The notes beneath the pieces were generated by a model. The model searched no databases, was not told where the DNA came from, and worked only from the letters and a program-made list of their open reading frames with translations. Shown piece by piece: positions 44,042 through 48,791 of a DNA stretch of 64,000 nucleotides. How positions within the stretch are numbered: the first letter of the stretch is position 1; every line of letters begins with the position of its first letter. A program made the translations under genes and the position numbers. The stretch comes from Candidatus Heimdallarchaeota archaeon. Its GTDB lineage: Archaea; Asgardarchaeota; Heimdallarchaeia; Hodarchaeales; Hodarchaeaceae. Where the stretch lies: positions 821,057 through 885,056 of the forward strand of contig CP070695.1 of the NCBI GenBank assembly GCA_020353515.1, read 5' to 3'.

Positions 44042-44389
44042 GTGATAGAAATGGCGCGAGTAATCAACGAAAAGGAATTTGCAGACATTATTAAAGCAAA
44101 TACACAATCAAATTCATCCCGACCTTTAGTGGTAGATTGTTTTACTGATTGGTGTCCTCCATGTAAAGCAAGTGCTCCTATCTTTGAAAAATTCAGTCAG
44201 AAGTATACTGAAGCCGATTTCATAAAAATTAATGTAGATAAAAATCAGGGAGTAGCTGTTAAATTACGAATCCAGGGAGTCCCGACTTTTGCAATAATCA
44301 TTGGAAATAGATTAGTTTCGAAGATAGTGGGAGCAGATATGAGAAAATTAGAGAAAGAAATCCAAAAAGCTATCAATGGAAAAGAATAA
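44042..44389 (+). CDS. trxA: Thioredoxin
   Basis: VDCFTDWCPPCK; cis-Pro motif GVPTF. Confidence 0.9.
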   Translation: MIEMARVINEKEFADIIKANTQSNSSRPLVVDCFTDWCPPCKASAPIFEKFSQKYTEADFIKINVDKNQGVAVKLRIQGVPTFAIIIGNRLVSKIVGADMRKLEKEIQKAINGKE

Positions 44390-44637
44390 CTCTCTTCTTC
44401 CTTGAGGGGTAACTGGGATTAAGCTAAATTCCGAAAGGAGCCAATTGTACAATCAAACATAATTTCAAGTCTTCATGGATTTGAACAAGGAGGAGATAAA
44501 AAGGATTAATTTAGTTTTTTTCATTAATCGTTTTGATTTTTTTATTACATAGAAAAAAGACTTATGATTCAGTTATAAATAGTGGATTAGGAAGCAACTT
44601 TGATCTATTAGTAAATCATTATTTGAGGGCTATTTAT

Positions 44638-45531
44638 TTGGTTAAAGATTACTATGAAATACTTGGAGTCCCAAAAAACGCTTCAAAAAAAGATATTAAA
44701 AAAGCATACAGAAAACTAGCTTTGAAATATCATCCCGATCGTGCAAAAGAAAGTGGTATGAACCCAAAAGTAGCCGAAGAAAAGTTTAAAGAAATAGGAG
44801 AAGCATATTCAGTTCTTTCAGACACAGAAAAAAGGCAACAATATGATCAATTTGGACCCGAGGGATTTGCTCAGTTTGCTCGTGGAGGAGCGGGAGGATT
44901 CAGAATGGATATTGACCCATTTGAGATTTTTTCACAGTTTTTTGGTAGAGGCGGACCTAATGACTTTTTTTCAGCATTTGGAACTGGAGGTTCTCCGTTC
45001 TCAGGAAGAAGTGGTTTTAGAACCGCGATGAGACCACAAAGAGGTCAAGATCTCAAAATTGCCTTAAAACTTAAAATTTCAGAATTGGAGGGAAGAACTA
45101 CCTCTTTAAAGAAAACTATCAGTCTGAATCGCAAATATCAAGATGGTTCTACAAAAAAAGAGAAGATTAGGATTCCAATTCCTCCCAATATTAAAAATAG
45201 AAAGATTTTGAGAATAACTGGTAAGGGAAACCAAGGTAAAATGGGGGGGAGTGCTGGAGATTTACTAGTAGAAGTTTCTTTGATAGATGACGTTTTAGAG
45301 ATACCTGTTTCGGTCTTTTTAGCAATTCGTGGTTCAGATCTGACCATCAAAACACCTGCAGGTGAACAATTATCAGGTTATATACCTAAAAACACGAAAG
45401 AAAATACAATACTTACATTCATCAATAACGACAATGAAAATAAGAAAATAAGGGTGAAATACCAGTATCCGAGGAGTTTAACAAAAGAACAGGAAGACCT
45501 ATTATCAAAATTACATGAGCTCACAAAATGA
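44638..45531 (+). CDS. dnaJ: J-domain co-chaperone (DnaJ class B/CbpA-like, no Zn finger)
   Basis: [16 protein letters not shown]-rich region, C-terminal domain. Likely TTG start at 44638 after a GAGGG SD. Confidence 0.88.
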
Positions 45532-45876
45532 TCAATGATTTGTTATTTGTAAATCCTTTTTCTCCTTCATCTGAGCCCTGATGATAGTTTTCCTCCCAAT
45601 TCTTCTGAGAACATTTTCAATCCCTTCTTCCATTAACTGTTTCATCGAGTATTGAAATGTAGGTTTGATATTATAACCGTACTTTTGATCTATAAATAAT
45701 ATCAGGTATTTAACAGTAAAAGAACCTAAATCCATATCAATTGTTCGTGATAGAATCCCTGCAGCAAGTCCAGATTTATCTTGTGTGCTTTGATCACATA
45801 ATTCCTTGATTTTTTGCCATTGACCGAATGTTTCACCAATAATAGCCAATGACGTGACAAGTTTAGAAGAATTCAC
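45532..45876 (-). CDS. Hypothetical protein
   Basis: 114-aa ORF with GGTGA upstream, abutting the dnaJ stop. Confidence 0.6.
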   Translation of the reverse strand: MNSSKLVTSLAIIGETFGQWQKIKELCDQSTQDKSGLAAGILSRTIDMDLGSFTVKYLILFIDQKYGYNIKPTFQYSMKQLMEEGIENVLRRIGRKTIIRAQMKEKKDLQITNH

Positions 45877-46079
45877 TTCATCACCAATCTCTTTGATTTT
45901 TCTGTATTTACTAAATGATAATGTTTATAATTTCTTGTAGTGGAAATCATATAAATATTAATCATCAATAATTGATTTCCAAATATTTTTAATTTATCTT
46001 AAAATACTAATTCCAACATCGTTTAATAATAATGTATCTTATATAAACAAAACACAAATATCAATAGGAGCAAAGAAAC

Positions 46080-46361
46080 TTGGTTCGACTTGTGTTTAAG
46101 AATAGATCATTTACTGAAGGTAGAGAGGAAGCTGGTGACGCTGTACTAATCTTAGACGAGGCGACTCAATCAGGAAAATTGGAATACTCTCCTGATGCTG
46201 GTTTAATCTTACGTAGAACAGCACGTCGGCAAGCTGAGAGTATTTGTAGATCGGGATTTCAACTTGCAACAGGAAAAAGAATAGGAGCAGGATTCACTCT
46301 AACAGAAGATGAAGACAAAATTGATGACCGTCTACTCCAAGAAGGACACAAGTACCGTTAA
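46080..46361 (+). CDS. Probable Asgard proto-gelsolin (ProGel-like minimal gelsolin/cofilin fold)
   Basis: 93 aa. GLILRRTARRQAESICRSGF..TGKRIG.G..L...RLLQEGHKY resembles, from recall and not from a search, the Asgard single-domain ProGel helix and C-terminal motif. SD AGGAG upstream. Confidence 0.6.
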   Translation: MVRLVFKNRSFTEGREEAGDAVLILDEATQSGKLEYSPDAGLILRRTARRQAESICRSGFQLATGKRIGAGFTLTEDEDKIDDRLLQEGHKYR

Positions 46362-46388
46362 TCCCGATTAAAGTATAGGCAGACCTAG

Positions 46389-46928
46389 ATGCCAGCTAGC
46401 ACTTCGAAAATTGTTATGTGTGGAGACTACGGGGTTGGTAAAACAACTTTTGTTAAGTTGTTTTTAGGAGGTGAAATAGGAGGAGGGTATAAACCAACAA
46501 TTGGTGTGGATATTGGTCGCAAAATTTTCGATATCGATCGTAATAGGATTACCTTCCAAATTTGGGATCTTTCTGGACAAGAATCATTTCATTCAATTAG
46601 AAAACAATTTTATAGCAGAACTGATGGAGCAATTCTAATTTTTGATGTTTCCCGACGTACAACTTATCAAAACATTACTCGATGGACAGAAGAGTTGTTA
46701 GAAGAGACAGGAAAGATACCTATTGTGCTAGTAGGTAATAAGATCGATTTACGTGATGAGTTAACCGAATTTGTGACAACTGAAGAGGGTGAATTATTAT
46801 CTAAAGTCATTTCTAGTCAAACTGGTATCAAAACTCCATTTGTAGAAGCAAGTGCAATCAAACAACAAAAAAATCTCGAACCTTTTACAATGCTTGGAAA
46901 AACCATTCTGGAGCAAAAGGAGTCATAA
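46389..46928 (+). CDS. Rab/Ras-like small GTPase
   Basis: GDYGVGKT, PTIGVD, WDLSGQESF, GAILIFDVS, GNKID, EASA; no C-terminal Cys prenylation motif. Confidence 0.92.
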   Translation: MPASTSKIVMCGDYGVGKTTFVKLFLGGEIGGGYKPTIGVDIGRKIFDIDRNRITFQIWDLSGQESFHSIRKQFYSRTDGAILIFDVSRRTTYQNITRWTEELLEETGKIPIVLVGNKIDLRDELTEFVTTEEGELLSKVISSQTGIKTPFVEASAIKQQKNLEPFTMLGKTILEQKES

Positions 46929-46942
46929 TTTTTTCTTTTTTT
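46929..46942 (+). terminator. Oligo-T archaeal terminator
   Basis: ttttttcttttttt immediately after the GTPase stop. Confidence 0.5.
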
Positions 46943-47077
46943 GACTGATCTATCAATACCATCTGATAATGACAAAAAAGTCATCTTTTATTATTACGAT
47001 TAGAGTTCTAAACAATTTTAACAGGAAAATATATTTGAATTACAGCTTAAGTTTTTGATTAACGAAAAAAAAATTGT

Positions 47078-47980
47078 GTGATTAGCATTTCTCGAATTTT
47101 GATTCTTGCAGACATTCATGGGAATATTCAAGCTGTATCTAAATTACTTTCAATAATCAAGAAAGAACAGTGGTTAATAGATTTAATTCTAATAGCGGGG
47201 GATCTCCCAGAAACTACACCTATCAGTTTAATGCTACAATATATCCTTTCTCATGGTAATTTATCTAAAAGTAAGTATACAAAATGGGTTTATAAAGAAG
47301 GAGGGAGAAGAATATTTGTAAACAAGCAAATCAAGTCAGTTAAAGCCATTCTAGCTCTTTTAGCTTCACTAAAAGCTCCCATCGTTTATGTACCAGGTAA
47401 TGTGGATAGTTATGAAGCTCAAAAAGTACTTAAATCTTGGACAGCTTCAGAGGTTCATTTCTTAAATGCAAAAGTCCTCAAACTTGGATCCCTACAAATT
47501 TGGGGATTTGGAGGTACTGTATTTCCTCCTAAGAGACATAAAGAACCATTATGTGATATGGAATTTTCTCCAAATGATTTTTCATCCCAATTGAATCCAT
47601 TATTCAAAATAAGTACAGACACATCTTCCCGTACCTTTAATATCCTCCTTACACATGAACCTCCTGCTTTTTGCTATAAGACTGATGAGAGAACGATTAG
47701 TGGCGGATCTGATGAACTAACTAAGTTAATACAATATTTAAAACCGAATTTAGTGATATTTGGGCATTATCATGAATTTCCACTAATAAAAACACAAAAA
47801 GATATGATTTTTATTAATCCTGGACCATTAACACGATATTATTTCGCTTTAGTTGAAATTAAAGAGAATCTAGTTACAAAAAGTATCAAGAAAATGAACT
47901 CTGTCGCATGGGACTTCAAGAATATGATTTATTCAACTCGATTCCAACAATATAAAGAACTCAGATTTACAGAGTTCTAA
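47078..47980 (+). CDS. Calcineurin-like metallophosphoesterase
   Basis: ADIHGN, AGDL, PGNVD, THEPP, GHYHE, INPG. Confidence 0.88.
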   Translation: MISISRILILADIHGNIQAVSKLLSIIKKEQWLIDLILIAGDLPETTPISLMLQYILSHGNLSKSKYTKWVYKEGGRRIFVNKQIKSVKAILALLASLKAPIVYVPGNVDSYEAQKVLKSWTASEVHFLNAKVLKLGSLQIWGFGGTVFPPKRHKEPLCDMEFSPNDFSSQLNPLFKISTDTSSRTFNILLTHEPPAFCYKTDERTISGGSDELTKLIQYLKPNLVIFGHYHEFPLIKTQKDMIFINPGPLTRYYFALVEIKENLVTKSIKKMNSVAWDFKNMIYSTRFQQYKELRFTEF

Positions 47981-48002
47981 AAAAAGATAGATAGGGGTTA
48001 GG

Positions 48003-48791
48003 TTAAATCCGAACAGTTGTTTCCAACCGAATACCTTTCTTATCTATCGTCATAGGAACAGAAATTGGTAACAGGGTACTCTTCCAAGATTTCTGAACTG
48101 AGAAATTAATTGATATTTTTCCCCCACCAACTCTACCAAACGAGATATCAAATACGAAATCAGCTAAATGAGAAGCGAGAACTTCAATAGAGGAGCCATG
48201 CAGATTCTTTACCATAAGAATAAAGTGAATCCCTGATCCTCGTTGCCTTACAATGTGTTTCAGCGTTTCAATGGCAATAGATACGCTTTCCATGGAATTA
48301 CTACGGATCATTGAGGAAATTGTGTGTATACATGTACTCACATTATCATACTCAATAATTGTAGGTACAAAAACTCTTGAAAAATAACGTAACGAATCTT
48401 GAGCGTAATCGGAACCAAAATCCACACCAGGTAAAGATTGTAGACCAATGACAGCTCCTTCAGCAGCAATTCTAGCGGTAAAGGCGTCCATAAATTGCCA
48501 CTTTTCACCAGCTACCACAAAAGGTTGAATATTAAAATCATAGATTCCCATTTCTTCAATTATTTCGTGTGGTCTCCCATCGTATGATAAATAGACCACT
48601 TTTTCTGTTGCTTTTGATTTTAATGTTGAAAAAAGGATTTGCTGGGCAAATAATTCAAATTTTGTACCTGGTTCTCCCAATACTAGAATTACACTTTTAT
48701 CAGGGAGTCCAGGATTATCCTCTCCTCCTAAGAATAGGTCTAAAGATTTGACACCTGTACGAAGTATCTTATTCGTTTCCAAAGTCTTCAC
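48003..48791 (-). CDS. KaiC/RAD55-like RecA-fold protein with degenerate Walker motifs
   Basis: TGVKSLDLFLGG..GLP....LVLGEPGTKFELFAQQ; LADFVFD; IDKKGI. Confidence 0.8.
   Translation of the reverse strand: MKTLETNKILRTGVKSLDLFLGGEDNPGLPDKSVILVLGEPGTKFELFAQQILFSTLKSKATEKVVYLSYDGRPHEIIEEMGIYDFNIQPFVVAGEKWQFMDAFTARIAAEGAVIGLQSLPGVDFGSDYAQDSLRYFSRVFVPTIIEYDNVSTCIHTISSMIRSNSMESVSIAIETLKHIVRQRGSGIHFILMVKNLHGSSIEVLASHLADFVFDISFGRVGGGKISINFSVQKSWKSTLLPISVPMTIDKKGIRLETTVRI

Follow-up and report, generated by a model that had tools for sequence, protein, structure and literature searches.

In a 64,000-nucleotide stretch of the genome of a Candidatus Heimdallarchaeota archaeon of the order Hodarchaeales (the window, G000:C1:821057-885056, in which G000 denotes the source genome, a 4.94-Mb single contig), a small open reading frame (ORF) encoding a protein of 93 amino acids (aa) is followed on the same strand by a 179-aa ORF that encodes a small GTPase (Table 1). 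The initial annotation of this locus, made from the sequence alone, had placed the two ORFs 27 bp apart between an AT-rich region and an oligo-T tract, and each of these features was confirmed: the 203 bp ahead of the pair are markedly poorer in GC than both genes (GC fraction 0.34-0.43 within the genes), and the T-rich tract begins directly behind the stop codon of the GTPase gene. Oligo-T tracts serve as transcription terminators in archaea, and we infer that the two genes are co-transcribed. A scan for promoters and terminators returned 10 sigma-70-like sites, with 9.0 expected, and no hairpin terminators; its model is that of sigma-70 and not an archaeal one, and it is uninformative for an archaeon.

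The 93-aa ORF is a real gene whose product has a gelsolin-like predicted fold, and it is kept beside the GTPase gene within Hodarchaeales; in other proteins, the same domain is found fused to Ras GTPases and to two-domain gelsolins. These observations suggest, tentatively, that the small protein might be a direct partner of the GTPase.

The gene pair and its conservation

The 93-aa ORF is a genuine gene, more than a chance frame, as judged from the identity of its homologues, the bias of their differences towards third codon positions, and a conserved ribosome-binding site. There are 68 database homologues, all of them from Asgard metagenome bins where the source is named; 66 have lengths of 84-114 aa and share 71-98% identity with the query across at least 89% of its length, the other two being an 85-aa partial sequence and a chimera (P0068). 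Among 12 orthologues, codon-position differences number 1325, 604, and 3008 at positions 1, 2, and 3, respectively. The motif AGGAG lies 9 nt upstream of the start in all nine orthologous upstream regions that were aligned, and the start codon is ATG in eight of eight aligned orthologues where the window has TTG. The ORF has no match to any Pfam or NCBIfam family, and none to Pfam Gelsolin at E up to 1.

Two of the related sequences are irregular. In P0068 (147 aa, from a 755-bp contig), residues 1-40 are identical to the ORF and the remainder matches Peptidase_M28; it is most likely an assembly chimera and was excluded from the alignments used for folding. The orthologue in genome G005 (G005:C367:3165-3443 = L031:3165-3443) contains an in-frame TGA, plus a TAA with a wider profile, and the GTPase gene behind it is intact; either gene decay or an error in sequencing may account for this. 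A structured RNA in the GC-richer stretch of the ORF was also considered and rejected: an Rfam search with permissive filters over 45000-48000 found nothing there, and its sole weak match (E 0.96) lies outside the ORF, at 47583-47643.

The product of the second gene matches Pfam Ras (E 2.7e-40) and NCBIfam small_GTP (E 3.6e-24). The GTPase motifs GDYGVGKT, T37, DLSGQ, NKID, and SA are invariant or nearly so across all 16 aligned orthologues, each of which also keeps the catalytic glutamine, Q64. The best sequence match in the PDB is Ran (E 2.4e-31), over residues 5-125 only, followed by a Thorarchaeota Rab (7ezb; E 3.9e-29, full length) and then by Rab2, Rab11, and Sec4. The protein ends ...TILEQKES and has no C-terminal cysteine; in eukaryotic Rab proteins, a C-terminal cysteine motif is the site of prenylation. 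The initial annotation had called this a canonical Rab-like GTPase, which is borne out as regards the Ras superfamily and the G1-G5 motifs, but with Ran as the top match and no C-terminal cysteine, 'Rab/Ran-like' is a fair label on sequence grounds and is the one used here.

The order of the 93-aa ORF, the GTPase gene, and a metallophosphoesterase gene is the same in 12 of 12 same-genus loci, and the GTPase gene lies directly behind the ORF in all 15 same-genus genomes that have the ORF. The spacer between the two measures 0-55 bp in 12 of the 13 loci measured and 208 bp in the remaining one. In seven same-genus genomes, which are 71-95% complete, the ORF is represented by paralogues alone, and an orthologue of the GTPase is lacking as well, the best matches there scoring 105-122 bits compared to 207-213 bits in genomes G001 and G016; because the scores in these ORF-less genomes are below those of orthologues, the two genes appear to be present or missing together. 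In the sister family, one of two genomes has the pair (G023, with 26 bp between the genes), and three genomes from a further family of the class carry a gene for a Ras-like GTPase 1.2-1.5 kb away on the opposite strand. A search for related loci with a narrower profile found 19 loci, of which 14 are the orthologous pair and overlap the compared genomes; these 14 come from metagenome-assembled genomes mostly labelled Hodarchaeota or Heimdallarchaeota, with some labelled otherwise.

The 208-bp spacer contains a partial second copy of the last 23 codons of the ORF, 74% identical (L006:1324-1392, and at the corresponding place in L034). In the sister-family locus L040, a coiled-coil gene occupies the place of the metallophosphoesterase gene. 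On the other side of the pair, a divergent 114-aa ORF (window 45532-45876, minus strand) is kept in 6 of 12 same-genus loci, with 52-70% identity in the five besides the window's own, and had no match in Pfam, NCBIfam, or a protein-atlas (protein-language-model) search. Further upstream are thioredoxin and DnaJ genes (44042-45531, plus strand), with the DnaJ gene kept there in 7 of 12 same-genus loci. A gene for a KaiC-like ATPase (48003-48791, minus strand; Pfam E 1.7e-12) lies 1.1 kb past the GTPase gene. Two genomes of another Asgard family (L095, L105) have a far stronger KaiC match (E ~1e-70) beside a gene of the same protein family as the ORF, and the proximity of KaiC in the window and in these two loci may be a coincidence.

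Table 1. Features of the gene pair and its immediate surroundings (window positions).
Feature	Position	Strand	Remarks
AT-rich upstream spacer, putative promoter region	45877..46079	+	GC 0.21-0.26
AGGAG ribosome-binding site	46066-46070	+	9 nt upstream of start codon
93-aa protein of a Pfam-less Asgard family, predicted gelsolin/cofilin-like fold	46080..46361	+	TTG start here, ATG in orthologues
Intergenic 27-bp spacer	46362..46388	+	from sequence
179-aa Ras-superfamily (Rab/Ran-like) small GTPase, G1-G5 intact, without C-terminal cysteine	46389..46928	+	ATG start
T-rich tract TTTTTTCTTTTTTT, candidate archaeal terminator	46929..46942	+	from sequence only
300-aa calcineurin-like metallophosphoesterase	47078..47980	+	Pfam Metallophos E 5.8e-17

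Predicted fold and relation to gelsolins

Two AlphaFold2 models of the 93-aa protein, made from alignments of 28 and 59 sequences, have mean predicted local distance difference test (pLDDT) values of 73.9 and 77.1 and agree in their secondary structure, with four strands followed by a 17-residue helix and one more strand. In both, this gives the core fold of the gelsolin/cofilin (actin-depolymerizing factor homology, ADF-H) group, a mixed beta-sheet on one long helix with four strands, the helix, and a strand in that order. When the models were compared with 48,161 PDB chains in an all-against-all structural search, Thorarchaeota ProGel (7c2f_D) ranked first for both, and ranks 2-20 were taken up in each case by gelsolin, villin, adseverin, fragmin, severin, or ADF entries. 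A protein-language-model search ranked the protein's own cluster first and, second, one that scored 0.94 and has the Pfam Gelsolin domain (PF00626) in 28% of its members.

Sequence profiles point in the same direction in one comparison. When 135 family domains were aligned by hhalign with the N-terminal, Pfam-positive gelsolin domain found in 22 proteins of Hodarchaeales, the result was P 1.2e-4 (probability 54.6%, 53 columns) in the structurally expected register, strand-strand-helix, with AVLILDE opposite VYIIVDE; controls with the family reversed gave P 0.029, 0.15, and 0.14. One family member, P0152, has a weak PF00626 match of its own over the family domain (E 4.2e-4, 20.5 bits vs a cut-off of 21).

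Other comparisons count against a gelsolin relationship. The Foldseek lists are headed by Asgard gelsolins, but all E-values are 0.085 or worse, i.e. non-significant. Comparison by hhalign with the two domains of 97 Heimdall 2DGels was likewise non-significant (P 0.29 and 0.033), profile searches of PDB sequences at E up to 10 matched no chain, that of ProGel (7c2f) included, and PF00626 had no significant sequence match to the ORF. The WxG motif, described as the signature of gelsolin domains in PMC9433394, is missing: in the hhalign alignment, the canonical IFIWKG pairs with KLEYSP of the ORF, and the family consensus has neither W nor G at this place.

Taking these results together, a gelsolin/cofilin-like fold of the 93-aa protein is likely on the strength of the models, and homology with gelsolin is plausible at the level of sequence, where support is weak. 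The fold on which the initial annotation had staked its reading is indeed predicted, in two models with a gelsolin/ADF-type top 20, notwithstanding the Foldseek E-values. The likeness to ProGel that it had noted extends to the predicted fold, with 7c2f as the top structural match, and no further: there is no sequence kinship and no WxG, and the protein belongs to a separate, phylum-wide family. It is not a ProGel orthologue. Thorarchaeota ProGel (PDB 7C2F, PMC7444086) is similarly a single domain, of about 88 aa, and its weak actin binding and bundling have been measured (PMC7444086; Akil et al., 2020), whereas the 93-aa protein is known here from its sequence and from models. The accessible part of PMC7444086 describes no GTPase neighbour of ProGel, in contrast to the arrangement in the window.

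A Pfam-less family of Asgard archaea

At E ≤0.001, a profile search yielded 138 proteins among 1.84 billion representatives; the 134 domains that were kept stand alone (39) or lie at the N-terminus (57), at the C-terminus (34), or internally (4). Among sampled Asgard genomes, the profile search detected the family in 214 of 251, covering 54 of 63 genera, mostly as ORFs of ~100 aa. Across 135 family domains, two arginines and two glycines stand out: R50 in 132 of 135, R67 in 113 of 135, G59 in 134 of 134, and G69 in 119.

Pfam scans, which covered 124 of the 138 representatives, revealed two Gelsolin repeats ahead of the family domain in P0073 and P0098, and a Ras GTPase with the family domain at its C-terminus in three (P0137, P0147, and P0202). 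The other partners are many weak coiled-coil matches, one thioredoxin, and one RING domain. A search for longer fused forms with a wide profile was swamped by chance candidates, gave one match among 8000 scored, and is uninformative.

G000 has three family members: the ORF in the window, a 415-aa protein, and a 278-aa protein. The 415-aa protein (G000:C1:2119838-2121085; L013:839-2086) has two Pfam Gelsolin repeats (E 3.4e-19) joined through a long linker rich in proline to a family domain at the C-terminus, which is the nearest paralogue of the ORF (46-49% identity) and has the same LLQEGHKY ending. In a FastTree tree of the domains, the ORF clusters with such 2DGel C-terminal domains (support 0.78, which is weak), and the Ras-fused domains are nearest, also with weak support, to another 2DGel C-terminal domain. 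The 415-aa protein is probably of the type published as the extended 2DGel of B3_Heim, 409 aa long with an uncharacterised 193-aa C-terminal extension, which PMC9433394 describes only as a tail lacking homology to the other tail examined there. The difference is that the extension is recognised here as a domain of a phylum-wide family with a gelsolin-like predicted fold, and that the ORF in the window is this domain alone, beside a GTPase.

G000 also contains a second cluster in which a gelsolin-type gene directly precedes a Ras-like GTPase gene (G000:C1:2587516-2589810; L046:1501-3792). Here, a 313-aa gelsolin protein has a canonical N-terminal Pfam gelsolin domain (21.8-24.6 bits, above the cut-off) and a linker rich in Pro, Thr, and Ala; its gene is separated by 22 bp from that of a Ras GTPase (Pfam E 2e-49), behind which lies the gene for an Arf/MglA-like GTPase of 250 aa. 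All 14 same-genus loci and both sister-family loci show the gelsolin gene followed by the GTPase gene in this way, compared to none of 7 loci from other families of the class. As G000 has 50 Ras-like ORFs in 4.94 Mb, or about one per 99 kb, it is unlikely that two of its few gelsolin-type genes would lie immediately beside one by chance. The two clusters share their gene order and both occur in Hodarchaeales, but differ in that one has a Pfam-positive 313-aa protein with two GTPases and the other a Pfam-negative 93-aa protein with one, and their GTPases are only distant paralogues (E 6.1e-20).

The third family member of G000, the 278-aa protein (G000:C1:2581069-2581905; L014:1570-2406), has an N-terminal family domain followed by two near-repeats of an acidic segment (EEEYVPTFLTQE...). 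Its gene lies 2.8 kb ahead of the best G000 paralogue of the window GTPase and 6 kb ahead of the second gelsolin-GTPase cluster. In other Asgard genera (40 loci, L069-L108), stand-alone family genes have two recurring kinds of neighbour, either a ~590-aa protein without a Pfam family or a ~228-aa Prok-RING_1/zinc-ribbon protein together with a ~225-aa PRC-barrel protein; no actin, profilin, or GTPase theme was seen among these 40 loci.

The gelsolin superfamily, the Asgard ProGel, 1DGelX, and 2DGel proteins, and Asgard small GTPases are already known. What appears to be new is the phylum-wide Pfam-less family, the recognition of the C-terminal extension of Heimdall 2DGels as one of its members, the fusions of its domain to Ras GTPases, and its fixed pairing with a Rab/Ran-like GTPase in Hodarchaeales. 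The literature searched, as far as its text was accessible, holds no description of the family or of the pairing, and supplements to it (D19, D21, and D22 of PMC11914678; SI (supplementary information) Fig. S1 of PMC7444086) may list such proteins.

A candidate partner of the GTPase, and the alternatives

Prediction of a complex of the GTPase, GTP, Mg, and the 93-aa protein gave weak support, with a score of 0.48 (individual runs 0.48, 0.00, and 0.55), compared to 0.00 as the best of three controls; partner pLDDT is 70 or higher, and 5% or more of the contacts are shared between the runs. Of 157 solved complexes, 116 reached the mark set for this score, as against 2 of 215 mismatches; with scores ≤0.60, those reaching it were only 18 of the 157 solved complexes and both of the passing mismatches.

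The reading that we favour, while giving it somewhat less than an even chance, is that the 93-aa protein and the GTPase are direct partners, encoded together in a two-gene unit and possibly tied to the actin system. On this reading, the ORF would encode a divergent single-domain protein of gelsolin/cofilin fold, its gene and that of the Rab/Ran-like GTPase would form a two-gene unit in Hodarchaeales, and the small protein would serve as an effector or adaptor that reads the nucleotide state of the GTPase. The two proteins would bind each other, and the 93-aa protein may affect actin, which G000 encodes at C1:2936847-2937953: its relatedness to the third, C-terminal domain of three-part gelsolins may be what ties the switch to the actin system. 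The link to GTPases, in which the initial annotation saw a genetic tie between small-GTPase signalling and actin dynamics, gains support from the Ras fusions, from the second gelsolin-GTPase pair, and, weakly, from the complex prediction, but as a pairing of genes it is limited to Hodarchaeales; the control of the cytoskeleton that was read into it is an inference.

Besides the sequence comparisons given above, several points speak against this reading. One of the three complex runs scored 0.00, and in the tool's own wording such a score is more often wrong than right unless the pairing was likely beforehand. The Ras fusions are rare (1-4 contigs each), and the idea that the fused Ras domains are orthologues of the window GTPase was rejected, as their best matches in G000 are other paralogues. 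The same-genus counts are not independent, because the genomes are closely related, and the joint loss of the two genes may represent a single deletion event, since the genomes are kin and the genes adjacent. The sister-family genome G022 has a GTPase with an orthologue-like score (152.7 bits) and no family ORF ahead of it; a search of six frames with filters off found no remnant of the ORF there. Outside Hodarchaeales, a co-directional adjacent GTPase gene was found in 0 of 40 loci from ~26 genera, and a GTPase gene within 3.5 kb in only six of the 40, two of these from the further family of the class mentioned above. From its conservation within the order and the 0 of 40 elsewhere, the pairing is a trait of Hodarchaeales and not of the whole family, so that the conserved adjacency anticipated by the initial annotation exists inside the order and is absent from the 40 loci of other Asgard genera.

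It is also conceivable, though we think it unlikely, that the protein is a plain actin binder of ProGel type that is co-expressed with the GTPase without contacting it, the pairing reflecting shared timing of expression or genomic inertia within one order. The rank of Thorarchaeota ProGel as top structural match, the nearest paralogue being a domain of a two-repeat gelsolin, the phylum-wide spread of the family with no GTPase neighbour in the 40 loci outside the order, and the retention of the GTPase without the ORF in G022 would all fit such a protein. It is harder to reconcile with the fusions of the domain to Ras in three representatives, with a second gelsolin-GTPase pair kept in the same order, and with a complex prediction that passed, if weakly, when all controls scored 0.00; moreover, the ORF lacks the sequence signatures of gelsolins, and other, canonical one-domain gelsolin genes in the genome could be its ProGel.

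Alternatively, the protein could be a regulator of the GTPase (GTPase-activating protein-, guanine nucleotide dissociation inhibitor-, or guanine nucleotide exchange factor-like) built on a gelsolin-like fold and having no role with actin, a possibility to which we attach a low probability. A precedent exists in eukaryotic Sec23: its gelsolin-like domain contributes a catalytic residue to the hydrolysis of GTP by the small GTPase Sar1 (PMC11914678). The near-invariant arginines R50 and R67 fit such a role without proving it, the GTPase keeps its catalytic Q64 in every orthologue aligned, and the operon pairing and the Ras fusions are compatible with it as well. However, the gelsolin-like domain of Sec23 is part of a five-domain coat protein, it is a much weaker match to the models than the true, actin-binding gelsolins are, and the GTPase in the window is Rab/Ran-like and not Sar1/Arf-like. 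No alignment supports a correspondence of R50 or R67 to the catalytic residue of Sec23, and because most family members have no GTPase nearby, the conserved arginine needs some other reason in those members.

Least probable, and to our minds very unlikely, is a common alpha/beta look-alike fold that does not share descent with gelsolins, has a function unrelated to actin and GTPases, and sits beside the GTPase by an accident of lineage: the weak sequence evidence for gelsolin homology and the unrelated recurrent neighbours in other genera would suit it, but the first 20 structural ranks are all gelsolin/ADF-type for two independent models, the protein-language-model search reaches gelsolin clusters independently, repeated fusions place the domain behind true gelsolin repeats (P0073, P0098, and the 415-aa protein of G000), and the pair is kept at a spacing of 0-55 bp across two families of the order.

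Direct partnership with the GTPase also admits a broader version, which we put forward with little confidence: the family as a whole would be a primordial gelsolin-fold module for binding GTPases, and in Hodarchaeales a Rab/Ran-like switch would bind this module directly and pass its state to actin severing or capping proteins. The state of the GTPase would reach these proteins without an intermediary, as the third domain of the three-part gelsolins is this very module.

Asgard genomes encode dozens of small GTPases, and Hodarchaeales is the archaeal order thought to be closest to eukaryotes. In PMC10933270, Asgard small GTPase genes are described as generally not lying in operons with regulators, which makes it hard to match a GTPase with its partner. 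One GTPase with a fixed gelsolin-fold neighbour amounts to a defined GTPase-partner pair, drawn from gene context and predicted structure, in an order that now has a cultured, actin-dependent motile representative (PMC13716822). With the pair, one can look for binding between an archaeal GTPase and a gelsolin-fold protein, and for an effect of such binding on actin dynamics or GTP hydrolysis. There is now a name and a predicted fold for a Pfam-less family that 214 of 251 sampled Asgard genomes contain, for the previously uncharacterised C-terminal extension of Heimdall 2DGels, and for the rare Ras fusions. If the family is indeed a primordial GTPase-binding module, these archaea would have a simpler and more direct version of the wiring that leads from GTPases to actin in eukaryotes.

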